DNA from: an uncultured Phycisphaerales bacterium | GTDB lineage: Bacteria > Planctomycetota > Phycisphaerae > Sedimentisphaerales > Anaerobacaceae | Length of the DNA: 64,000 nt | Assembly: GCA_963718665.1 (NCBI GenBank) | Contig: OY970359.1 | Location: 2,208,001 to 2,272,000 of the forward strand | Direction: 5' to 3' | Shown: positions 5,461 to 53,298 of the stretch, in pieces | How the letters are laid out: every line of letters starts with the position of its first letter | How positions within the stretch are numbered: the stretch's first letter is position 1 | Made by a program: the position numbers and the translations under genes | The notes under the pieces: model-generated | What the model saw: only the letters and a program-made list of their open reading frames with translations | Database searches by the model: none | What the model was told of the DNA's origin: nothing

Positions 5461-6915
5461 ATGGCTGGCAAACAAATTCAGTTCTACTATAAGAATGTAA
5501 TGGCTGACGTAATCGGCCCCGAACACGGCATAACCGCTCAGCAGTTAGATGAATTAGCGAGAGAAACTTCGCCTCTCATTCCCAAAATCAAAGACGAAAT
5601 CCTCACAGGCAACTCCCGCTATGGCCTCCTCCCTGGCGACCCGCAAATCGCCAAAAGCGTCAAAGCGTTAGTCAAGCACTTCAAGCCCAAATGCGAAAAC
5701 CTCGTCGTCTTCGGCATAGGCGGCTCCGCACTCGGCAATATCGCCCTGCAAAACGCACTCAATCCATTTACCTATAATTTAGACAACAACAAGCGCAAAG
5801 GTCGGAGATCTCGCCAACAGGCGGACCCGCGTCTTTTCGTCTTTGATAACGTTGACCCCGCGCAATTCGGCTCATTTCTCGACTTCATCACGCCTCGCTT
5901 AGGCAAAACCGTCTTCAATGTCATCAGCAAATCGGGCCAGACCGCCGAAACCGCCTCGCAGTTTATGATTGTCCAGAAAATGTTAGAAACCCGCTTCGGC
6001 AAAGAAAAACTCAAGGACCGCGTCGTCGCGACCACCGACCTCGAAAAAGGCACGCTCCGCAAAATCGCTACCGACGCCGGCCTGCACACGCTCGTCGTTC
6101 CCGATGGGGTAGGGGGGCGATTCAGCGTTCTCTCAGCCGTAGGCCTTTTCAGCGCAGCCATGACGGGCATAAATATCGACCAGCTTCTCGCCGGCGCAAA
6201 AGATATGCACACCCGCGTAACGGAACCCGACTTCTTCAAAAACCCCGCCGCAATCAACGCCGCGATTCAAATCCACTATTACAACCGCAACAAAAGAATA
6301 TCCGTGATGATGCCCTACAGTTCCGCACTTTACAGTTTCGCCGACTGGTATCGCCAGCTTTGGGCAGAGTCGCTCGGCAAGAAATACTTCCTCGATGGCG
6401 GCGAGGCACACGTCGGCCCGACTCCTGTAAAGGCCCTCGGCGCAACCGACCAGCACAGCCAGGTTCAGTTGTATCGCGAAGGCCCAAATGACAAGATTTT
6501 TACGCTGCTCGAAATCCAGGATTTTGGCAGAAAAGTCAGGATTCCCGCTCCGCCCAAATCCGCTCCTGAGCTTGCCTATCTTGCCAAAAAAGATATGGGC
6601 GAATTGCTCAACGCCGAGAAAAAGGCCACCGAATACGCCTTATGTGCGAGCAATCGTCCCTGCGTAACGGTGCTTTTCCCCAAAATCGACGCCTATACCG
6701 TTGGCCAGTTCATATTCCTGTTCGAGGCGACGACCTCATTTGCCGGCGCCCTTTTGGACGTCAATACTTATGACCAGCCCGCGGTTGAGTTGGGCAAGCA
6801 GGCGACTTTCGCGCTTATGGGCAAAGCAGGCCAATACACCTCGGACAGGTCTTACGCTGATTTTGCCGCCGAGATTCGCGCCAAGACCGAATTTGACGCC
6901 AACTTCGTTATTTGA
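5461..6915 (+). CDS. pgi: Glucose-6-phosphate isomerase
   Basis: GIGGSALG, ISKSGQTAET, GGRFSVLS, QLWAESLGK, DQHSQVQLY, DQPAVELGK. AAGGA RBS before ATG 5461. Confidence 0.96.
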   Translation: MAGKQIQFYYKNVMADVIGPEHGITAQQLDELARETSPLIPKIKDEILTGNSRYGLLPGDPQIAKSVKALVKHFKPKCENLVVFGIGGSALGNIALQNALNPFTYNLDNNKRKGRRSRQQADPRLFVFDNVDPAQFGSFLDFITPRLGKTVFNVISKSGQTAETASQFMIVQKMLETRFGKEKLKDRVVATTDLEKGTLRKIATDAGLHTLVVPDGVGGRFSVLSAVGLFSAAMTGINIDQLLAGAKDMHTRVTEPDFFKNPAAINAAIQIHYYNRNKRISVMMPYSSALYSFADWYRQLWAESLGKKYFLDGGEAHVGPTPVKALGATDQHSQVQLYREGPNDKIFTLLEIQDFGRKVRIPAPPKSAPELAYLAKKDMGELLNAEKKATEYALCASNRPCVTVLFPKIDAYTVGQFIFLFEATTSFAGALLDVNTYDQPAVELGKQATFALMGKAGQYTSDRSYADFAAEIRAKTEFDANFVI

Positions 6916-12806: not shown

Positions 12807-13172
12807 ATGATTACGCTAACGGACACAAGAAAAGCGGTGGAGTTTTTCGAGGCGAAGCTCGAATTTACGACCGGACCTGTCGAGCTGAACTCAATGATTG
12901 AAAGCGGCGAGTATGTGAACATCATTGACGTTCGAGGCAAAGAGGATTTCAGCAAAGGCCATATCCCCGGAGCGGTAAATCTTCCGAAGGAACGGTGGAA
13001 CTCGTTTAGGGGATTGAGCAGAGAGAGGGCCAACGTTGTGTATTGCTATTCACAGCAATGCCATCTGGCGGCGAGGGCGTGCAAACTCTTTGCGGAAAAC
13101 GGGCATCCTGTGATGGAGCTCGAAGGCGGCTTTGATGCCTGGCAGAAACATTCGCTGCCGATTGGGAGGTGA
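12807..13172 (+). CDS. Rhodanese-like domain protein
   Basis: IIDVR...GHIPGAVNLP...VVYCYSQQC...LEGGFDAW. AAGGAG RBS. Confidence 0.92.
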   Translation: MITLTDTRKAVEFFEAKLEFTTGPVELNSMIESGEYVNIIDVRGKEDFSKGHIPGAVNLPKERWNSFRGLSRERANVVYCYSQQCHLAARACKLFAENGHPVMELEGGFDAWQKHSLPIGR

Positions 13173-13210
13173 ATGAGTATCGCAGCGAAATACACATTAG
13201 TGATTTGAGA

Positions 13211-13238
13211 ATAGCCGGTTTTTTAGCCGGCTTTTTTC
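13211..13238. terminator. Probable terminator between convergent genes
   Basis: AGCCGGTT-tttt-AGCCGGCT then T run. Confidence 0.6.
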
Positions 13239-13249
13239 TTTGGAGGTTG

Positions 13250-14245
13250 TCAGCCGAGGATGAGATTTGCGGTGGAAAAGTAAAAGAGGAGGGTGGCGAT
13301 GTCTGCTGCGGCGAGGACGATGGGGCCTGCGGCGACTTTGGGGTCGATGCGGAATTTTCGTATGAGGGTGGGGACAATGACGCCGAGGAGGCAGGCGGTG
13401 ATGACAGAAAGCCAGATGCTGAGACCGATGGCGAGACCCTGCCATAAGACGCCTTTCCAGGAGTAAGCGGTAAGTCCGACGACGAAGCCGGAGCCGGCGC
13501 CGAGGAGGACGGAGGTTAGCAATTCGCTGCGGACACCTATCAATATGCGCCGCCAGGAGGCGTTTCGCTGGAGGAGGACCTGGAGGGTAAGGGCCATTGA
13601 CTGGATGCTGACGCTTTCGGAGATTGCCAGGACGACGGTGATGAACATCGCGAGGATGGCCAGTTCGCTGATGAGCAGTTCGTATCGGCTGGCGATGAAG
13701 GCGCAGATTATGCCGCTGGTGATATTGCAGAAAAGCCAGGGGAACCGGCCTTTGAAGTCCGACCACGGAGAAACCTTTTTTTTGCCGATGGAGACGTGGA
13801 CACCAATCATCTGGAAGACGTTTTCGAGCTGACGCTGGTGGTTGAGCGAGACGACATCGTCGGTGAAGAGATTGATATCGACGATGCCGAGGATTTTGTT
13901 GTCGTCATCAACTACGGGCAGAGCAAGAAAGCGATATTCCGTGAAAAGCTCGCAGGCGTGCAAAACCGACTGTGAATACAGGACCGAGACAGGGGAACGG
14001 ACCATAATCGACGAGATTTTCGTTTGGGGGTCGCTGGTGATTACGTTTCTTATGGGAACGACGCCTGTGAGGCGATTATGCTCGTCGGTAACGTAGAGAT
14101 AAAGGATATCTTTAGGGGAGGCGTTATCCCTGATGGATTTTATGGCATGAGCTACGGTTTCGTCGTATTTAAGCGTGACGAAATCGGTCCGCATATAGGC
14201 GGAGACAGGTTCCCGCAGATTATGGTCGCTCAATTTAGCCGGCAT
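13250..14245 (-). CDS. mgtE: MgtE-family magnesium transporter (CBS pair + TM domain, no N-terminal domain)
   Basis: Two CBS repeats (YLYVTD, LALPVVDD), RFPWL, IDPKVAAGPIVLAAADI. Confidence 0.88.
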   Translation of the reverse strand: MPAKLSDHNLREPVSAYMRTDFVTLKYDETVAHAIKSIRDNASPKDILYLYVTDEHNRLTGVVPIRNVITSDPQTKISSIMVRSPVSVLYSQSVLHACELFTEYRFLALPVVDDDNKILGIVDINLFTDDVVSLNHQRQLENVFQMIGVHVSIGKKKVSPWSDFKGRFPWLFCNITSGIICAFIASRYELLISELAILAMFITVVLAISESVSIQSMALTLQVLLQRNASWRRILIGVRSELLTSVLLGAGSGFVVGLTAYSWKGVLWQGLAIGLSIWLSVITACLLGVIVPTLIRKFRIDPKVAAGPIVLAAADIATLLFYFSTANLILG

Positions 14246-43438: not shown

Positions 43439-43816
43439 TCAGTCCTCCGTCTTGCGTTCACCGTTGTTCTTGCATTCCGCCAGCTTGCCCGGCTCAGCGG
43501 TTTTCCTATAGCCCAGCGCCTTGATTACCTCCAGCACCTCAGTCCACGTCGGGAAGGGGCGGGCGTTGGCCTTTTTGTATTCATTGATGGCCATCAAAAA
43601 CTCGAACTGCTCATCGGACATTTGTCCTTCTTCGGCGCTTCTGCGGTCATCGCTCCTGCGTTTGCCCGGCCCGCGCCGGCGGTCAAGTCCGATTCTCCTG
43701 TCGAGTCCTGCTCGCCGGTCAATACCGACTCGCCTGTCAACGACACTGTCTCTGCGGTCCTCCTCGGTGTTGCATCCCACGGGCTGTTGCTCATTATTCA
43801 GTTCATTTGTTGCCAT
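43439..43816 (-). CDS. Small protein with tandem DRR repeats
   Basis: EDRR..VDRRVGIDRRAGLDRRIGLDRRRGPGKRRSDDRR followed by EFLMAINEYKK...PFPTWTEVL...LGYRK. GGGAG RBS. Confidence 0.85.
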   Translation of the reverse strand: MATNELNNEQQPVGCNTEEDRRDSVVDRRVGIDRRAGLDRRIGLDRRRGPGKRRSDDRRSAEEGQMSDEQFEFLMAINEYKKANARPFPTWTEVLEVIKALGYRKTAEPGKLAECKNNGERKTED

Positions 43817-43874
43817 TGCGTCTCCCTTGTTTATTGACTGCACGCCGTACGCTGTACGCCGTGTCCTGGTTTAA

Positions 43875-44255
43875 CTAATCCTCAAAGATGTCGCCTTCTA
43901 AGTCATCTTCATTCTCTTCATCGAGTCCGAAATCATAAAAATCATCGTATGCGTCCTGCGACTCGATTACCACGTGTGCCTCATCCACCATATCGTCCGG
44001 CACATACACCGCGAAGTGAGTACCCTCGCCGAACTCATTCGGCCTCTCCTTCACCATCGCTGGGATATCGTTGTTCTTCAGCAGTGTCTCGCAGTCCTTC
44101 GCTTCATCCAGCATGCTCGACGTCGCTACCACGACAAGCTCCTGCATTCCCCGGCTGTGATTTCGGCCGCTGCTCTTCGGCGCCGAATGCACCGATATCG
44201 AATTACTCGCTTGTGTCGATTGTCTCTTATGTGCCTTTTTCGTCTTCTTATTCAT
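43875..44255 (-). CDS. DUF2007-like (GlnB-fold) protein with acidic tail
   Basis: EA......LL.NNDIPAMV......AVYVP.D.VDEA pattern; basic N-terminus, D/E-rich C-terminus. Confidence 0.65.
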   Translation of the reverse strand: MNKKTKKAHKRQSTQASNSISVHSAPKSSGRNHSRGMQELVVVATSSMLDEAKDCETLLKNNDIPAMVKERPNEFGEGTHFAVYVPDDMVDEAHVVIESQDAYDDFYDFGLDEENEDDLEGDIFED

Positions 44256-44537
44256 TATTCCATCTCCCTGTCTTACATCTCGTTTCTCGTCGTTCGTAAT
44301 ACGTATTGCGTGGTCAGTTCGCACTACGCAGAACTCTCGCTAATTTCTTCGTCAATTACTCACCCCCTGTTTATCAAAAAATCACATCCTTTTTTAATTG
44401 TGCCGCCTTTACCTAACCCCTTGTCTATACTTGACTTACTTCGATATTAGCTATTGGCTGTTGGATATTGGATATTGGACATTGTGCGTTTATCGTGGGG
44501 GGGTGGACATTTAATGCTGTCCGCTGTCTGCAAAAAC

Positions 44538-44798: not shown

Positions 44799-45033
44799 AC
44801 TCCTTGGCCTTTTAATCGGCCGTCAATCTATAATGCCTCTCACATTTTGTGTTTGGAATATCCTCGAGAAGCGAAAAGATATGCCCTACAAGTCAGTTAT
44901 TATACCACATCTTTCCCCCGCTGCACTATAAATAATAAAAAATTATTCAAAATTCCAAAAAAGAAAATGGGATTAGACGCTGATTAACCCAGTGAGATAG
45001 GCGAAGCCGCAGCGTTCCTCCTTCGTCCCTGGA

Positions 45034-45639
45034 CTACGGAGGACAGGCTCCAGCCTTATCCTGAGGGAAGTTAAGTCGAGCAAATTCCCTATGGTATTCG
45101 AGAGCAGCTTTATCGTACGCAAGGGCGGCTTCGATTTCGGAAGTGAAACTGCCCAACCAAATTTTTTTCCCTTTATGTTTAATATTCGCATACCAGTGGG
45201 TTTTTTCAGGGCAAAGACATACCCCTTTATATTGAGACGAAGTATTTTTTGTTTTGCGTCTGTTGCACTGGTTTTGAGAATTGGTGGCTAAACGTAAATT
45301 GGCCCTGCGATTGTCGAGTTTGTCGCTGTTTTGATGGTCAACAAGAGTGCCTTTAGGGGCATTCATAATCTCTCTATGTATAAAGATGGTTTCTACTCGT
45401 CCGCATTTGGTTTGTTTGAGTATGCGAGCGGCATAAATCCGACCTTCATCGCCGCAGGCGGTCCATTTGAAACGGCCGAGGGTATAATAGACATCGACGT
45501 CAACGATGGTGAAGCAATTCTCGCCGAGGTCAATTTTGCGGAAGGTGTAGCCATAACGGAACAGGCGAAAGGCAAGTAGGGGTAAGGTGAAAAGAAAGTC
45601 GAGCCAGACGGGAATTGTTATAGTTAAATGTGCAGACAT
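45034..45639 (-). CDS. HNH endonuclease-AP2 domain protein, copy 2
   Basis: IHREIM...VDHQNSDKLDNRRANLR and SQYKGV...WLGSF..EIEAALAYD...FARLNFP. GGAGG RBS. Confidence 0.9.
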   Translation of the reverse strand: MSAHLTITIPVWLDFLFTLPLLAFRLFRYGYTFRKIDLGENCFTIVDVDVYYTLGRFKWTACGDEGRIYAARILKQTKCGRVETIFIHREIMNAPKGTLVDHQNSDKLDNRRANLRLATNSQNQCNRRKTKNTSSQYKGVCLCPEKTHWYANIKHKGKKIWLGSFTSEIEAALAYDKAALEYHREFARLNFPQDKAGACPP

Positions 45640-45658
45640 AGTTTCCTCCAGAACAAGA

Positions 45659-45740
45659 AATTCTAATTTCTAAATCCTAATCTCTAAACAAATCCCAAAT
45701 TTCAAACAAACAACAAATCACAAATTGCAAATAACAAATG
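45659..45740. repeat. AT-rich heptamer tandem tract
   Basis: aattcta atttcta aatccta atctcta aacaaat cccaaat ttcaaac ... Confidence 0.7.
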
Positions 45741-46246
45741 ATTTGGAACTTGCCTGTTCTTGGCGTGAAACTTGCCCTCCCGGGGCGAGTACTCGGAAGA
45801 CGGAAGACAGACGACAGAGGACAGATTGGCCGGCCTCCGACCTCGGTCATCCGTCCTAGGGACCATAACGTTCCTCTATATATAAGGTGAAATTACACGC
45901 ATTTTAAGGAGTTACGAAACACGATTTTTTTGCCCAAAATCAGTAAGTTCTTGTGGGGGAAGGGATAAAAAAATATTTTAAAATCACCGATTTTTTTTGG
46001 GTATATAGGTAATTTTGGGGAAAAGCGATTGATTGAACTGCCCAGATTGACATTTCGCCGCAAATTCGAAAATCAAGAACCCGGCAATAAAGTTGCCGGG
46101 TCATAAAAATTGTAAAACCAACACTTGCCCGCCGTCCGTTTGGCGAGGTTTGCCGCCCCCTCGGTTTCGACCACAAGGGGGGTGGCAATTTGCCCCCACC
46201 CTTTGGCAAACTCTGGGGCCGGCTTCGTTCATAAACTGTTTTTTGT

Positions 46247-47122
46247 CTAATGCACGCCAATTTTCCAGACGCCTTTTTCAAGAAAAGCTTCTATGGTCTG
46301 GCGGTTTGCTTTATTTATCAAATTGGAGTGTGATAAGTTAAACTCTTTGGCGTATTCGGCAAGCGTCATAATGCGCGCGCTTTCCAGATACGCAAGCCGC
46401 TTGTAATAACTATTCGTAAGGGCTTTACCGACTATTTCCTCCATAATCCTTGTGGCGCCTTTTTCGTCAAATTCGTTAAACGCATCGTAATACATCTTCC
46501 TGTCAATGAATTTAATATTCACCGGCACGAATCCTTCTCGTATAAGCAGATAATTATTTATTACCCTTCCGATACGGCCGTTGCCATCGACAAACGGGTG
46601 GATGTATTCAAACGTAAGATGCAGCAGCGCAATGCGTTTTATAATATTTTCATGACTGTTTGCGTTATACGCCGCGAGCATTTTTTCCAATCTTCCAACC
46701 ACTTCTTTGGGGTCCGGGGCTATGTGGCTGGCAACTCGAACCCATTCGCCTTGCTGTCTAAATCTTCCGGCGACATCATCCCGGATATTTGCTATAAGCA
46801 TTTTGTGAAGCAGCAGTAAACCATCCAGGGTAAGCTCCTGTTCTTTGGCTTTTGTATCGATATACGAAACTACCCGCGCGAGATTTTTGGCTTCAAAAAT
46901 TTCTCTTTCGGTTATGTATCTGTCTAAGTTTATCTGCAAAAGGATTTTTTCTGTGTCTTCGAGTGTAAGGGTGCTGTTCTCGATGGCATTGGAGTTATAC
47001 ACCTGCTCGGCGACTTCCGCTTCGCTCAATAATTTTATAAGCGATTGTTTCCCTACAGACGCGGCATAATACCGCTCCCTGAGCCGATGGATTGTATTAA
47101 AAACATGCAATACCTTTGCCAT
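46247..47122 (-). CDS. Fic-domain protein with N-terminal inhibitory helix
   Basis: HPFVDGNGRIGR catalytic motif; SNAIEN = (S/T)xxxE(G/N); short HTH-like C-terminus. Confidence 0.93.
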   Translation of the reverse strand: MAKVLHVFNTIHRLRERYYAASVGKQSLIKLLSEAEVAEQVYNSNAIENSTLTLEDTEKILLQINLDRYITEREIFEAKNLARVVSYIDTKAKEQELTLDGLLLLHKMLIANIRDDVAGRFRQQGEWVRVASHIAPDPKEVVGRLEKMLAAYNANSHENIIKRIALLHLTFEYIHPFVDGNGRIGRVINNYLLIREGFVPVNIKFIDRKMYYDAFNEFDEKGATRIMEEIVGKALTNSYYKRLAYLESARIMTLAEYAKEFNLSHSNLINKANRQTIEAFLEKGVWKIGVH

Positions 47123-47534
47123 AATTATATTATACGCCTAATTCACGCTTTTGCCAACATAATCGTGAAAAAGTTACAAAAAACCGACTATTTTCACGCT
47201 TTTGAACTGTAATTACTCCCGCAAAAGCCGCCTTTGCCTATATCGACCATATCGGTGATATCAACGAAATGATCCTCTACACGCTGTCCGCTGAACGCCG
47301 TCCGCTGTCGCCCATTTTCTGTCCTCTGCCCTCCGTCATCTGTCCTCTGTCTTATCACGGCCTTCTACTATCGCTGCTTATCGACTACGAAAAATATATT
47401 TGAAAAATATCTCACCTCGCATCTGGCAAACCATATTCCTCAAGAACCTGCCTAAAACGCATTATCCTTGACTTTTTTACTGCCATGTTTACCATATGTT
47501 TGTATTTGTAATAAAATTAGGAGTATTGCCAAGA

Positions 47535-47798
47535 ATGGAATCGCGTACAATAACACTTACTAAAGCCGCTTTCGACCACGGAAACCTTAACATACGTTCC
47601 TGCGGCAAAAATTTCTTCCCCCAGGACGTATTCGGCAATTCCTCACGCCGTAAAGGCATAGGCGCCCCTATCATAATAAAAGCTGATGGGATTCTACGGC
47701 CAATCGAAACGGATATCCCTACAGATGTAAAAACCGGCAAACCTCGATGGATTTTCAGAAATAGATCTTGGGTAAAAGAATTGGATATTTTTGATTAA
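47535..47798 (+). CDS. Short hypothetical protein, possibly truncated or chimeric
   Basis: 87 aa; TTGACT-16-TACCAT upstream; stop overlaps next ATG. Confidence 0.5.
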   Translation: MESRTITLTKAAFDHGNLNIRSCGKNFFPQDVFGNSSRRKGIGAPIIIKADGILRPIETDIPTDVKTGKPRWIFRNRSWVKELDIFD

Positions 47799-47992
47799 TG
47801 GAAATAGTGGAACAAGACAAATTAGTGTTCTCAATCACTTTGGATGATTTGCAGCATGAGTCTTTAGAAAGAATTGGCAGGGTATTGACCGACGAAGAAA
47901 TCCACATCGCAAAGAAGGGTTTAGAATCTGGATTACTCACGGATATTGATACTGTTTATAAAACGATATTTTCTGAAATGATTGGGAAATGA
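47798..47992 (+). CDS. Small acidic hypothetical protein
   Basis: 64 aa, start/stop overlaps on both sides (TAATG, ATGA). Confidence 0.65.
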   Translation: MEIVEQDKLVFSITLDDLQHESLERIGRVLTDEEIHIAKKGLESGLLTDIDTVYKTIFSEMIGK

Positions 47993-48927
47993 ATATGGCA
48001 GCGCAACAATTAAGTCCTTCTGACTTATTAGCATCCCAATTTCTTGAAAAAGCAAAAGAATTTCAAGCAAATGTTGAACTTATCAGAGTTCTAAAGTCAA
48101 GAACCTATCATATTGGGGAGGCAAATGTTTTAGTTCGCGCTTCATCAGAGGGTAACAGAAGATATTTTTTTGGCATCAATTATATAACTGTTGAAGAAAT
48201 TGCGAACCTTGACAACCCATTTATTGCTTTCATTTGTGGTTCTATTAATAAAGTTGTAATTATACCAGCCAAAATTCTTTTCAAGCATTTACCACAAATT
48301 AGCCACGACAGAAACGGTGAATACAAAATCAATATTGATAAAGAGTTGAACATTGTTCTGGCAGGAAGAAATAATAGGATTGATTGCAGCGGATTAATAA
48401 ATAATTGGAATCTGCTTTTGTCTCCTCCTCTAATTAAAGAAGAAGTAAGAAATACAGTGGAGGAAAGCTTGCATTCCATTTTGCAAGGTCGATTGTTGGA
48501 AATTGGAAACATTCGCGGTTATCATACCTACTGTCCGGATAAATCTAAAAAGTTCAACGAAAAAAGATTAGAAGAAATCTCAACTCTGAAAAATTGCCCT
48601 CAGTTGCAGTTTTCAGATTACAACTTGCTTAGACAGATTGATGTTTTGTGGTTTCAAAATCGTGGAAGCAATTTCGTCCCTGAATGTGCCTTTGAGGTCG
48701 AATTATCAACCGGAGTTTGGGCAGGTGTTGGAAGGATGGCCACATTATTGGATTACAAAAATGTCAGCTTTTTCGTAATTGCTAATGACTCAAAAAAATA
48801 TAAGCAAGTCATGAATTCATTTTCTGAATACGAAAGCCGTTACAAGTTCATTGCGAATGACTTTATCGACGACCTTTATTCTGCCGAGCTCAATCTGAAG
48901 GAATTAAGAATTGAAATTGGCTTGTAA
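47989..48927 (+). CDS. Putative PD-(D/E)xK nuclease
   Basis: HSILQGRLLEIG...RQIDVLWF...AFEVELST pattern in the C-terminal half. AT-rich. Confidence 0.7.
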   Translation: MNMAAQQLSPSDLLASQFLEKAKEFQANVELIRVLKSRTYHIGEANVLVRASSEGNRRYFFGINYITVEEIANLDNPFIAFICGSINKVVIIPAKILFKHLPQISHDRNGEYKINIDKELNIVLAGRNNRIDCSGLINNWNLLLSPPLIKEEVRNTVEESLHSILQGRLLEIGNIRGYHTYCPDKSKKFNEKRLEEISTLKNCPQLQFSDYNLLRQIDVLWFQNRGSNFVPECAFEVELSTGVWAGVGRMATLLDYKNVSFFVIANDSKKYKQVMNSFSEYESRYKFIANDFIDDLYSAELNLKELRIEIGL

Positions 48928-49649
48928 AGTTTCAAAACTATAATCCCGAGCCCGCATCAATGCCTTTCCATACGAGGTTGCTTGGCAAAAGCCGTATGGC
49001 TTTGTTTTCTTTCATCCATTCTTTAAACACTAATTTCGGAACAAGTATTTTTGAGCCGGCTGCTTTAGCATTAGCTTCTTCAAAGTTTGCGAGTGCAGAA
49101 TCACAGCAAACAGCAGGAACACAAATTTATTCCGAGGCGCACAGAGTTATACAAAACATAATGGACGGTTTAGCAACGGCCAATGCTTCGCCAAACAAGC
49201 CACAGGAAATCAATGCAATCAGGGCTGTTTGCACACATGGCGAAATGAAAAATGTCAAACTTACGAAAGTTGACATTAAACTTGTTGCACAAAACGGTAT
49301 AATTTATCTATTCGATCTCAAGACAGCAAAACCAAACGCCGGTGGTTTTAAAGAATTTAAGCGGACACTGTTAGAATGGGTCGCAGCTACGCTTGCAAGC
49401 AATCCAACGGCGAATGTCCAATCCCTTATAGCAATTCCGTACAATCCTTACGAACCTGAACCGTACAATCACTGGACGATGCGAGGAATGCTTGACCTCC
49501 CTAACGAATTGAAAGTTGCAAACGAATTTTGGGATTTTATCGGCGGCGAAGGCGCTTACCAAGATTTGCTCGATATCTTTGAAAGGGTAGGAATTGAATT
49601 GAGACCTGAAATTGATGCTTACTTCACACGATACAACAGGCAAAATTAA
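48927..49649 (+). pseudogene. TdeIII-like type II restriction endonuclease, apparently 5'-truncated
   Basis: KFQNYNPEPAS-MPFHTRLLG...SLNTNFGTSIFE...VDIKL...DLKTAKPN...IPYNPY. Protein-like frame extends upstream of ATG 48960 to the previous gene's stop with no start codon. Confidence 0.6.
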
Positions 49650-49868
49650 TCAGTGTCATCAGTGAAATCAGTGGCTAAAAAAATATTAGTGTCTTTGTGC
49701 CTTTGTGGCGAATCGCCCCCCCGATTAAAAATTTTGCATTTATAGGCATTTTTCTGTTGCAAAAGTAATAGCTATCCGACATATAAGAGAACAATTCGTT
49801 TGCCGGCTCAATGGTGTTGGCCGGCTAAATTAAGATTTTAGGTTTTTTTTTATGGAGGTTTTTTTAAC

Positions 49869-50054
49869 ATGGCAAAGCAAAAAGAAGTTTTGATTGTCGC
49901 CAGCAAAGTCAGAGCATATGTAAAGGGCAAGAAGATGATGACCTCATCTGATGCGATCGGCGCCATCAGCGATAAGGTCTATTGCATGCTCGACCACGCC
50001 TGCGAGAGAACAAAAGCAAATCGTCGCAGCACTCTTAAACCACAGGACCTCTAA
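49869..50054 (+). CDS. Bacterial histone-fold protein
   Basis: EVLIVASKVRAYVK...MMTSSDAIGAIS...ACERTKANRRSTLKPQDL: three-helix histone fold with RxTxxxxD clamp, resembling Bdellovibrio Bd0055. GGAGG RBS. Confidence 0.88.
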   Translation: MAKQKEVLIVASKVRAYVKGKKMMTSSDAIGAISDKVYCMLDHACERTKANRRSTLKPQDL

Positions 50055-50160: not shown

Positions 50161-50197
50161 GAAAGGCCGATATGTCTTCGGGCATATCGGCCTTTTC
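50161..50197 (+). terminator. Intrinsic terminator after the histone gene
   Basis: AAAGGCCGATATGTC-ttcg-GGCATATCGGCCTTTT. Confidence 0.85.
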
Positions 50198-50673: not shown

Positions 50674-51969
50674 ATGAAAGTTTTCATGCTTGGTTGGGAA
50701 TTCCCGCCGTATATTTCAGGGGGATTGGGTACGGCGTGTTATGGCCTGACCAAGGCGCTCGACCAGATGGGGGTTCAGATAACTTTCGTGTTGCCGACGG
50801 CGGTTCAAACGCAATATGCAAGTCATGTGAAATTGGTAAGCCCGGCAGTTCAGGTGGAATCGGCGGAGACGTCAGGGCGGGTGCGGCATCTAAAAAATGT
50901 CAAATTCCGGGCGCTTACCTCCCCGTTACAGCCATATCAAACAGCGAACAGCTACCGGAAAAGAATCGAGGATTCGCTTGCCCAGCTTCGCATGGCGCAT
51001 GGCAAGACAGACCAGTTTGTCGGCACGCTGGATTACAGCGGGGATATGTACGCGGAAGTTCAGCGGTACGCGGAGCTGGCGATACGGTTGGCGGCGAATG
51101 AGGAATTCGACGTTATTCACGCCCATGACTGGATGACGTACCCGGCAGGGGCGGCGGTGGCAAGGTTGACAGGCAAGCCGTTGGTGATACACGTTCACTC
51201 AACGGAGTTTGACCGCAGCGGGGAGCACGTCAACCAGATGATTTACGACATCGAGCGGATGGGGATGCACGTCGCGGACAAGATAATCGCGGTGAGCCAT
51301 CTTACGAGAAACATAATCATCAGCCGATACGGGGTAAGCGGGGACAAGGTCGAGGTCGTTTACAACGGGGTCGAGAGAAACGGCAATAATAACTGGCCCA
51401 TCGGCGATACCATAATCAACAGGGACGAGAAAATCGTTCTGTTTCTGGGCCGGATAACGATGCAGAAAGGCCCTGATTATTTCCTGCGGGCAGCCAAGAA
51501 GGTCCTGGAAAAGATAGACAACGTGAAATTCGTAATGGCCGGGTCGGGGGACATGATGAACCGGTCGGTCGAAATGGCCGCGGGGCTGGGGATAGGGAGC
51601 AAGGTTTTGTTTACGGGCTTTTTGCGAGGCGACGACGTTAATAAGATTTTCAAGATGGCGGACCTGTATGTTATGCCGTCGGTGTCGGAGCCATTCGGGA
51701 TTGCACCTCTTGAGGCATTGGACAACGATGTTCCCATCATAATCAGCAAGCAAAGCGGCGTTTCAGAGGTCATTCAGCATGCGCTTAAGGTTGATTTCTG
51801 GGACGTCGATGAGATAGCGAACAAGATAGTTGCCGTATTGAAGTATCCGCCACTGGGGATAACGCTGCGAAGCCACGGCAATTACGAGGTAAGAAAGCTT
51901 CGGTGGAGTGATTCGGCGGCAAAATGCGCGAGGATTTATGAAGATACGCTTGTTGGCGCGGGCGTGTAG
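50674..51969 (+). CDS. GT4-family glycosyltransferase, glycogen-synthase-like
   Basis: GWEFPPYISGGLG, HAHDW, GRITMQKG, PSVSEPFGIAPLEA. Confidence 0.92.
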   Translation: MKVFMLGWEFPPYISGGLGTACYGLTKALDQMGVQITFVLPTAVQTQYASHVKLVSPAVQVESAETSGRVRHLKNVKFRALTSPLQPYQTANSYRKRIEDSLAQLRMAHGKTDQFVGTLDYSGDMYAEVQRYAELAIRLAANEEFDVIHAHDWMTYPAGAAVARLTGKPLVIHVHSTEFDRSGEHVNQMIYDIERMGMHVADKIIAVSHLTRNIIISRYGVSGDKVEVVYNGVERNGNNNWPIGDTIINRDEKIVLFLGRITMQKGPDYFLRAAKKVLEKIDNVKFVMAGSGDMMNRSVEMAAGLGIGSKVLFTGFLRGDDVNKIFKMADLYVMPSVSEPFGIAPLEALDNDVPIIISKQSGVSEVIQHALKVDFWDVDEIANKIVAVLKYPPLGITLRSHGNYEVRKLRWSDSAAKCARIYEDTLVGAGV

Positions 51970-52083
51970 CCACAGAGAACACAGAGGACACAGAGAATAA
52001 AGTAAAAAATGGAATACAGAGGCAATCAGGGTACCAGGGAATCAGGTAATTACGGTTAACACACTTTAGACGAGGGCAAAGGA

Positions 52084-53298
52084 ATGGCTTCGGTTTGCTT
52101 TTACTTTCAGGTTCATCAGCCGACACGGTTGAGGCACTACACCGTATTTGACGACCACAGCTATTATTTCGACGACCACAAGAACGCGGAGATTTGCCGA
52201 AAGGTTGCCAACAAGTGTTATCTTCCCGCCAACCGCCTGATGCTCGATTTGATTCGCAAATACGACGGTAAATTCAGAATCTCATACAGCGTTACGGGAG
52301 TTCTCTTAGAGCAACTTAGCGCATATTGCCCTGAAGTGCTGAGCACGTTCGATGCGCTTGCGAGGACGGGATGCGTGGAGTTTCTGGGGGAGACGTATTA
52401 TCACAGTTTGAGCTTTCTGTATTCGCGCAACGAGTTCGCGGCCCAGGTTAGCAAGCATACACAAAAAATAAAGGAGCTTTTCGGTCAGACGCCGAAGGTC
52501 TTCAGAAATACGGAGCTAATCTATAATAACGAGCTGGCGTCGATGATTGAGTCGATGGGATGTTTCGACGCGATACTCAGCGAAGGAGCGGACCATATAC
52601 TTGGGTATCGAAGCCCGAATTTTGTGTATAGTCCGAAGGGGTGCAGCCGGCTGAAACTGCTGCTCAAAAATTACCAGTTGAGCGACGATATTGCTTTTCG
52701 GTTTTCGAACAGGGACTGGGCACAATGGCCATTGACGGCGGACAAGTTCGGGCACTGGATTGGCAAGGTGAACGGCAACGGTTTTGTGGTGAACCTGTTT
52801 ATGGACTACGAGACGTTAGGCGAGCACCAGTGGAAGGAGACGGGGATTTTTGACTTTATACGACATCTGCCGGGCGAGGTTTTCAAACATCCGGACAATG
52901 ACTTCAAGACGCCGAGCGAGGTTGTGAAGGCATATCAGCCGATAGGGGTAATTGATGTGCCTCACCTGATAAGCTGGGCGGACATCGAGAGGGACTTGTC
53001 GGCGTGGTTAGGCAACGCGATGCAGTCGAACGCTATTCATGAGCTTTACCGGCTGGAAAAGAAGATTAAAGCGTCGGAAGACCAGAACCTTATAAATGAC
53101 TGGCGAAAAATGCAGACATCAGACCATTTCTATTATATGTGCACGAAGTGGTTCGCGGACGGGGACGTACACAAATATTTCAATCCTTATGATTCGCCAT
53201 ACGAATCATACATCAACTTCATGAACATCTTAGGCAACCTTCAGGGCCGATGCGCCAGGCATCAACAACAGGCGGTGCCGGCAGGGGCAGTGGCGTAA
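52084..53298 (+). CDS. GH57 glycoside hydrolase (alpha-amylase type)
   Basis: QVHQP, ETYYHS, FRNTELIY, LSDDIAFRFS, MDYETLGEH, SWAD.ERDLSAW. Confidence 0.95.
   Translation: MASVCFYFQVHQPTRLRHYTVFDDHSYYFDDHKNAEICRKVANKCYLPANRLMLDLIRKYDGKFRISYSVTGVLLEQLSAYCPEVLSTFDALARTGCVEFLGETYYHSLSFLYSRNEFAAQVSKHTQKIKELFGQTPKVFRNTELIYNNELASMIESMGCFDAILSEGADHILGYRSPNFVYSPKGCSRLKLLLKNYQLSDDIAFRFSNRDWAQWPLTADKFGHWIGKVNGNGFVVNLFMDYETLGEHQWKETGIFDFIRHLPGEVFKHPDNDFKTPSEVVKAYQPIGVIDVPHLISWADIERDLSAWLGNAMQSNAIHELYRLEKKIKASEDQNLINDWRKMQTSDHFYYMCTKWFADGDVHKYFNPYDSPYESYINFMNILGNLQGRCARHQQQAVPAGAVA

Follow-up and report, generated by a model that had tools for sequence, protein, structure and literature searches.

The window, by which we mean the whole stretch of 64,000 nucleotides that was analysed, lies in a genome assembled as one contig of 2.61 Mb (94.6% complete). 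An open reading frame at 49869-50054 on its plus strand encodes 61 residues followed by a TAA stop, and the opposite strand over the same interval is interrupted by a stop. The gene stands among the following features, listed by coordinate.

43439-44324, minus strand: the two ancestral upstream neighbours, encoding a 149-aa protein (sub-threshold DUF2007 match) and a 134-aa protein of no family (from Pfam and comparison of loci)
44993-49645, no strand assigned: strain-specific insertion of 41% GC with HNH-AP2, Fic, three unmatched open reading frames and a 5'-truncated TdeIII-family nuclease, outside the histone unit (from comparison with relatives)
48915-49649, plus strand: the gene of the TdeIII-family nuclease (Pfam match only from profile position 32 on)
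49727-49785, plus strand: conserved upstream element, a putative promoter, with A/T tracts, TTGCAA at 49757-49762 and a possible -10 near 49780-49787 (from the upstream alignment)
49802-49825, plus strand: predicted hairpin of the 5' leader (from compensatory changes among relatives)
49854-49858, plus strand: Shine-Dalgarno sequence GGAGG, with a U-rich stretch before it (from the sequence)
49869-50054, plus strand: gene for a 61-aa alpha3 histone without an N-terminal tail, assigned to the face-to-face (FtF, HLp-type) subfamily from translation, homology and model
50161-50196, plus strand, scoring on the minus strand too: hairpin of 16 pairs resembling an intrinsic terminator, 107 nt past the stop (from a terminator scan)
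50674-53298, plus strand: GT4 glycosyltransferase and GH57 hydrolase genes, the conserved downstream neighbours, given for context (from Pfam)

The encoded protein is small and basic, with a computed pI of 9.8 and 13 K/R against 6 D/E. The preliminary description of this DNA had proposed a stand-alone bacterial histone, likely a nucleoid protein, and had quoted motifs that are all present in the translation: VLIVASKV at residues 7-14 (the VLxVxSKV start), MMTS at 23-26 (the M.TS entry into helix 2), YCMLDHAC at 38-45 and R53-x-T55-xxxx-D60 (RxTxxxxD). The proposal is borne out, as the sequence and the structural model both point to an alpha3 histone. All of the candidate homologues (662 out of 662) were accepted as such, and 1093 representatives match the histone profile at E ≤ 0.001. 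Comparisons with the window gene gave a median dN/dS of 0.069 and a maximum of 0.196 for the unsaturated pairs (32 of 80), and the gene is under purifying selection. Its codon usage has no clear bias over the 61 codons. The expectation that so small a gene would be missed by annotation was right in part: the exact protein is already present in public gene calls, yet the Pfam search gave it no family, its only NCBIfam match is a chance one to GspM (13.6 bits, where the cut-off is 120), and its named relatives are mostly annotated as 'hypothetical protein'.

Among solved structures, the best phmmer match was HLp of Leptospira perolatii (9QT0; E 3.4e-16, 28/57 identical, ungapped), with HBb/Bd0055 at E 1.4e-3 and 1.8e-3 and HTkC at 0.14. 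The profile search likewise placed HLp (5.7e-25) before HBb (5.8e-9) and HTkC (5.8e-6), and by neither search is the protein closer to HBb. The AlphaFold monomer (pLDDT 78, pTM 0.51) places helices at residues 11-20 and 27-49, followed by an alpha3 of three residues (58-60). This corresponds to the short alpha2 and the 3-4 residue alpha3 of the alpha3 fold, with the C-terminal part at low confidence (residues 51-61, which bear the tetramer contacts, have pLDDT of just 55-63). A Foldseek comparison with histone folds, suggested in the preliminary description as a check, returned HLp at ranks 1-2 (E 4e-5), then HBb (about 1e-2) and then eukaryotic histones. The top three in VIA-align were HLp, HTkC and HBb, with Z of 5.8, 5.3 and 5.2, values that are tied and within the chance range for helical models.

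The protein had earlier been placed in the class typified by Bd0055, and here our results lead elsewhere. According to the accessible text of PMC11390915, the motifs on which that placement relied are common to all alpha3 histones; the same text states that FtF histones, which occur in Planctomycetota, carry an arginine and an asparagine where the two dimers meet, and that both residues are missing from the bacterial dimer histones, which sets the two groups apart. The quoted motifs are thus shared by the two subfamilies, and it is R47 and N51 that separate them. The interface residues of HLp are R49 and N53 (PMC12701072, available text), and in the ungapped alignment R49, N53, R55 and D62 of HLp correspond to R47, N51, R53 and D60 of the window histone. 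R47, N51, R53, T55 and D60 are invariant in 121/121 close homologues and 80/80 loci, and among distant representatives R47 is found in 67/69 and N51 in 66/69. R53, T55 and D60 make up the RD clamp (RxTxxxxD) of alpha3 histones. As in other FtF histones, the alpha1 lysine is kept (K13, 121/121), and position 54 is S in 118/121, so that no K or R is fixed after the clamp arginine. In all 80 proteins the C-terminus reads xDL, two residues past the clamp, with the chain ending one residue beyond the clamp aspartate. Since a bridge from the arginine to the terminal carboxyl needs a fixed end point, this ending fits the FtF type. The R45A variant of HTkC is a dimer, according to the accessible part of 10.64898/2025.12.06.692711. 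Sequence and model together argue that the protein belongs to the FtF (HLp/HTkC) subfamily and not with Bd0055/HBb.

A histone of the latter type would bend or coat DNA as a dimer, and the window protein does have in common with HBb the VLxVxSKV start, M-x-T-S and RxTxxxxD, HBb being also a Foldseek match and tied in VIA Z. These motifs are the ones that all alpha3 histones carry. HBb (Bdellovibrio bacteriovorus; PDB 8FVX, 8CMP, 9EZZ, 9F0E) agrees with the window histone in the alpha3 fold, the SK motif and the RD clamp at about 36% identity, but it has S and D at the positions of R47 and N51, and so is without the two tetramer residues, reads RKT for RST, has an L1 one residue longer and a longer C-terminus, and acts as a dimer. 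With an E-value 13 orders of magnitude weaker than that of HLp, it makes a very unlikely model for the window protein. A pseudodimeric histone of the DUF1931 type was also considered and ruled out, the protein having 61 aa with a single fold and no Pfam family; the PDB molecule label of 9QT0 is 'DUF1931', whereas PMC12701072, in its available text, classes HLp otherwise.

The likeness of our FtF candidate to HLp (PDB 9QT0/9QT1/9QT2; PMC12701072, available text) extends over 57 residues at 49% identity without gaps. DNA-contact positions are kept or conservatively changed, the C-terminal end point is the same and neither protein has a tail. The differences are the replacement of HLp S52, G29 and T61 by A50, S27 and Q59, the presence of two cysteines in helix 2, and the genomic setting, which is GT4/GH57 and a DUF2007-like gene in the window and SMC/MAP/DUF350 for HLp. 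HTkC (Thermococcus kodakarensis, PDB 9F2C) is likewise of the FtF type and conserves the tetramer arginine; it differs in being only about 30% identical and archaeal, and in coexisting with nucleosomal histones.

As described in the accessible text of PMC12701072, HLp is a tetramer that wraps about 60 bp of DNA, with contacts made by A13, S14, K15, K17, K21, T27, G29, K54, T56, T57 and R59. In the same order, these residues map to A11, S12, K13, R15, K19, T25, S27, R52, S54, T55 and K57 of the window protein. We are confident in reading the latter as an FtF histone with a predicted closed ring of four copies, which likely wraps about 60 bp non-specifically and serves as a housekeeping nucleoid protein beside HU. 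By analogy with HLp and HTkC, alpha2 would mediate the head-to-tail pairing of two chains into a dimer, and two such dimers would close the ring by joining at both ends, where R47 and N51 act together with the free carboxyl at the C-terminal residue L61, with the R53-D60 clamp fixing loop L2. Residues A11-S12-K13, R15, K19, T25, R52, S54, T55 and K57 would touch the phosphate backbone round the ring, and the DNA (about 60 bp) would be wrapped without sequence preference. We infer the tetramer, the DNA binding and the abundance of the window histone from such analogy.

The genome has one histone gene and one HU gene, unlike Leptospira, the host of HLp, which is without HU (PMC12701072, available text). 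With HU present, the main organiser may be a protein other than the histone, and a protein of the same FtF fold could have a small or localised role (in bridging, in silencing foreign AT-rich DNA or in transcription control) instead of wrapping DNA in bulk. In its crystals HLp is seen in a bridging arrangement as well, and it mildly prefers DNA of 40% GC (same text). We regard this lesser role as rather unlikely, given the near-universal single copy in the order, the strong purifying selection and the conserved expression signals, and given that the FtF histones characterised elsewhere rank near the top in protein or transcript abundance (accessible portions of PMC10627809 and 10.64898/2025.12.06.692711). 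In two metatranscriptomes 5% of the words were present; the contigs were short pieces of relatives that never spanned the gene, and one of them crosses the promoter, so it may be DNA.

The histone is a single-copy core gene, near-universal in the order and with fixed neighbours. It was found in 39 of 41 related genomes and in 29/29 of the good ones, the two misses being 80% complete and 7% contaminated. In a sample of the class, 16/16 genomes of the same order have it, against 12/104 of the others; across the phylum the profile matches 134/301 genomes, other histone types being counted in. The named relatives (72-98% identity) are mostly labelled Sedimentisphaerales, Phycisphaerae/Phycisphaerales or Planctomycetota, some bearing the depositors' label 'Pirellulales', and the genome of the window is accordingly taken to be Sedimentisphaerales-like. 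Downstream, the GT4 gene follows the histone in 25/30 loci, with the GT4 start motif in 73/76; upstream, the DUF2007-like gene lies within the fetched flank in 62/72 loci, and in 61 of these it is in divergent orientation, at 186-443 bp from the start of the histone gene. The locus sets behind these counts overlap and are kin, and the counts are not independent. In the window, the DUF2007-like gene is 5.5 kb from the histone. The 134-aa protein beyond it (43439-43843, minus strand) has repeated DRR motifs and no family, and is encoded beside the histone locus in 14/30 loci.

The extra distance in the window is taken up by the insertion at 44993-49645, a restriction islet that is a later insertion beside the core histone gene. 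In a close relative (G007, locus L034) about 290 unrelated bp stand in its place, and another (G017, L033) has different cargo at the same site, while the histone and the genes downstream continue at 91% identity. The preliminary description had set the histone at the edge of a decayed restriction islet. The islet is real and decayed, as its TdeIII gene is truncated and a search of the genome gave no C5 methylase, but because it is absent or different in relatives while the histone stays, the position of the gene at its edge is incidental. The frame of the TdeIII gene extends further 5' without a start codon, and the missing 5' end was probably overwritten by the 312-aa open reading frame that lies upstream. 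GGNCC is no more depleted in the genome than CCNGG or GCNGC, and no att-like repeats were found flanking the islet.

It has also to be asked whether the histone is itself a cargo or a partner of the islet, mobile or linked to defence. It adjoins the TdeIII gene at 220 bp, and in one relative (G006) the promoter and the gene are duplicated as a direct repeat round an insert. Yet the islet is missing or replaced in G007 and G017 with the histone and its downstream genes still in place, the ancestral neighbours directly flank the histone in 61/72 loci, and the GC content of the gene (47%) fits that of the genome (49%) and not that of the islet (38-41%). We therefore give this possibility almost no weight, and keep to the histone as a core gene with an insertion beside it.

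Several observations concern the insertion site in its own right. The site just upstream of the histone promoter is an insertion hotspot, with differing cargo in close relatives (the window, L032, L033, L034 and L035). In L032 (G006:C2), a 334-bp direct repeat (98%) at 5984-6317 and 13167-13499 comprises the promoter and the whole histone gene round a 6.8-kb insert, whereby G006 holds two intact histone copies; this is either an insertion by gene duplication or an assembly artefact. The HNH-AP2 endonuclease of the window (45034-45639, minus strand) has at least one paralogue in the genome (G000:C1 1519003-1519617), and relatives have corresponding genes at this insertion site. The three low-GC open reading frames (100, 64 and 312 aa; 47496-48927, plus strand) have no Pfam or NCBIfam match, and the 312-aa one may, at a guess, encode a nuclease. 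A short orphan peptide fragment at 47220-47290 (minus strand) presumably resembles DNA-damage-inducible protein D.

The gene had been credited with its own ribosome-binding site and a strong downstream terminator, and both are in place. GGAGG stands 10 nt 5' of the ATG, and GGAG occurs within 20 nt upstream of the start in 78/80 loci. The terminator hairpin has z = -6.3, with 0/200 shuffles as stable, and similar hairpins are found in 67/79 loci, a count made without a control. Further upstream, an alignment of 25 of 30 regions (the other five being three whose leaders are longer, one that is truncated and one that lacks the motif) shows A/T tracts with TTGCAA some 110 nt 5' of the start codon, then the hairpin, the U-rich stretch and the Shine-Dalgarno sequence. 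A T-tract with the GTTG motif is present in 68/77 loci, and the full promoter-like pattern occurs at just 2 sites in the whole genome. A sigma-70 promoter scan did not score the element as a consensus; a promoter would be its simplest interpretation. In the leader hairpin, 84.5% of cells are paired with two-sided changes in 5/8 pairs, as against 21-55% in slid controls, the structure having been drawn from the same sequences that were used to score pairing. Its folding energy is weak: z is -1.35 in the window, and the median across loci is -0.83 with 29/75 below -1.5, compared with -0.44 and 16/76 for an upstream control. Judged from this anatomy, a promoter of its own, a structured leader, a strong Shine-Dalgarno sequence and a terminator would give a monocistronic and probably abundant mRNA.

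A palindrome found upstream in some relatives, TGCAAAATTTTGCA, was tried as an operator and rejected, being degenerate in the window and without an exact match in the genome. The second promoter-like site (L116; G000:C1 1516836-1517060) is followed by about 170 nt without a long open reading frame and then by a hairpin and a T run, and is possibly a small RNA; Rfam gave nothing there at E ≤ 1, nor anything at gathering score across the window. The accessible literature on such histones yielded no description of the promoter element, the leader hairpin or the upstream insertion hotspot.

The two cysteines of helix 2 had been suggested to allow redox or metal control, and this suggestion fared poorly. 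C39 is kept in 108/121 close homologues and 66/80 loci, and position 43, H in the window, is C in some relatives, which is what a switch built on Cys39 and Cys45, an addition compatible with the FtF assignment, would have in its favour. C39 is, however, rare among distant homologues (8/69) and swaps with S, G and A; C45 occurs in 22/121 and 20/80 and is otherwise mostly I/A/V, H43 is found in 10/121, and the two cysteines occur together in just 20/121 close homologues and 19/80 loci. C45 aligns with L47 of HLp, a hydrophobic residue of the dimer core. Cys39 and Cys45 stand at i and i+6 on the same helix, a spacing at which no disulfide can form within the chain. A redox or metal switch is thus quite improbable, and the aligned sequences give no support to a conserved switch of two cysteines; C39 by itself may have a role.

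The protein class, its structure and wrapping mode and its occurrence in Planctomycetota are already published, and a near-identical orthologue has been catalogued: the accessible Table S1 of Hocher et al. 2023 (PMC10627809) lists PLLM01000040.1-52, which differs at 5/61 residues (92% identical) and falls in the same orthologous group as the window histone. The table also has the Sedimentisphaerales/Phycisphaerae singlets KPK45077.1, KPL22212.1, AQT68594.1, ARN56793.1 and AQQ71211.1, and includes, besides PLLM01000040.1-52, other Phycisphaerae histones of 61-63 aa; its entries for Brocadia sinica and Kuenenia have RKT and are without the R and N residues. Literature searches turned up no experimental work on histones of Sedimentisphaerales, and the clade may be listed as FtF in published supplements, among them those of PMC12701072; the readable supplements of PMC11390915 had no match for the organism names.

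A tie to the condensed nucleoids of planctomycetes, proposed earlier, appears weak. A condensed nucleoid is reported for Gemmata (PMC3440768), a genus that the supplements of PMC10627809, as far as searched, do not contain. The same paper has Pirellula staleyi, Planctopirus and Phycisphaera mikurensis among its genomes and, as far as its tables were available, lists no histone for any of them; nor do histones come up in the accessible text of PMC12673574. When HLp was expressed in E. coli, the nucleoid became decondensed (PMC12701072, available text). With model species lacking a listed histone and HLp acting to decondense, the link is not supported for the model species that can be checked.

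What the locus does mark is a bacterial order with a nearly universal FtF histone that coexists with HU, unlike Leptospira. A broader reading would be that the whole order Sedimentisphaerales has histone chromatin, passed on vertically and working alongside HU, with a kind of regulation undescribed for histones in bacteria: Cys39 as a residue specific to the clade, a structured mRNA leader that is conserved and a hyperconserved promoter element, these two allowing feedback control, and a Lys-rich N-terminal tail of none (in the window histone) to about 45 residues (in cultured relatives). Taken jointly, we put this forward as speculative and on balance improbable. The cultured Anaerohalosphaera, Sedimentisphaera and Limihaloglobus have histones of 100-108 aa with Lys/Ala/Thr-rich N-terminal extensions (accessible part of PMC10627809), whereas the window histone has none; with such tailed versions in cultured species, the respective roles of histone and HU and the function of bacterial histone tails become testable. 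Among the orthologues collected here, Lys/Ala-rich N-terminal tails range from none to about 45 residues (L018, L023, L027-L030; P0142, P0154, P0163). Many proteins of 118-150 aa match the FtF profile twice and are tandem FtF-like doublets (P0140, P0141, P0145, P0148 and others).
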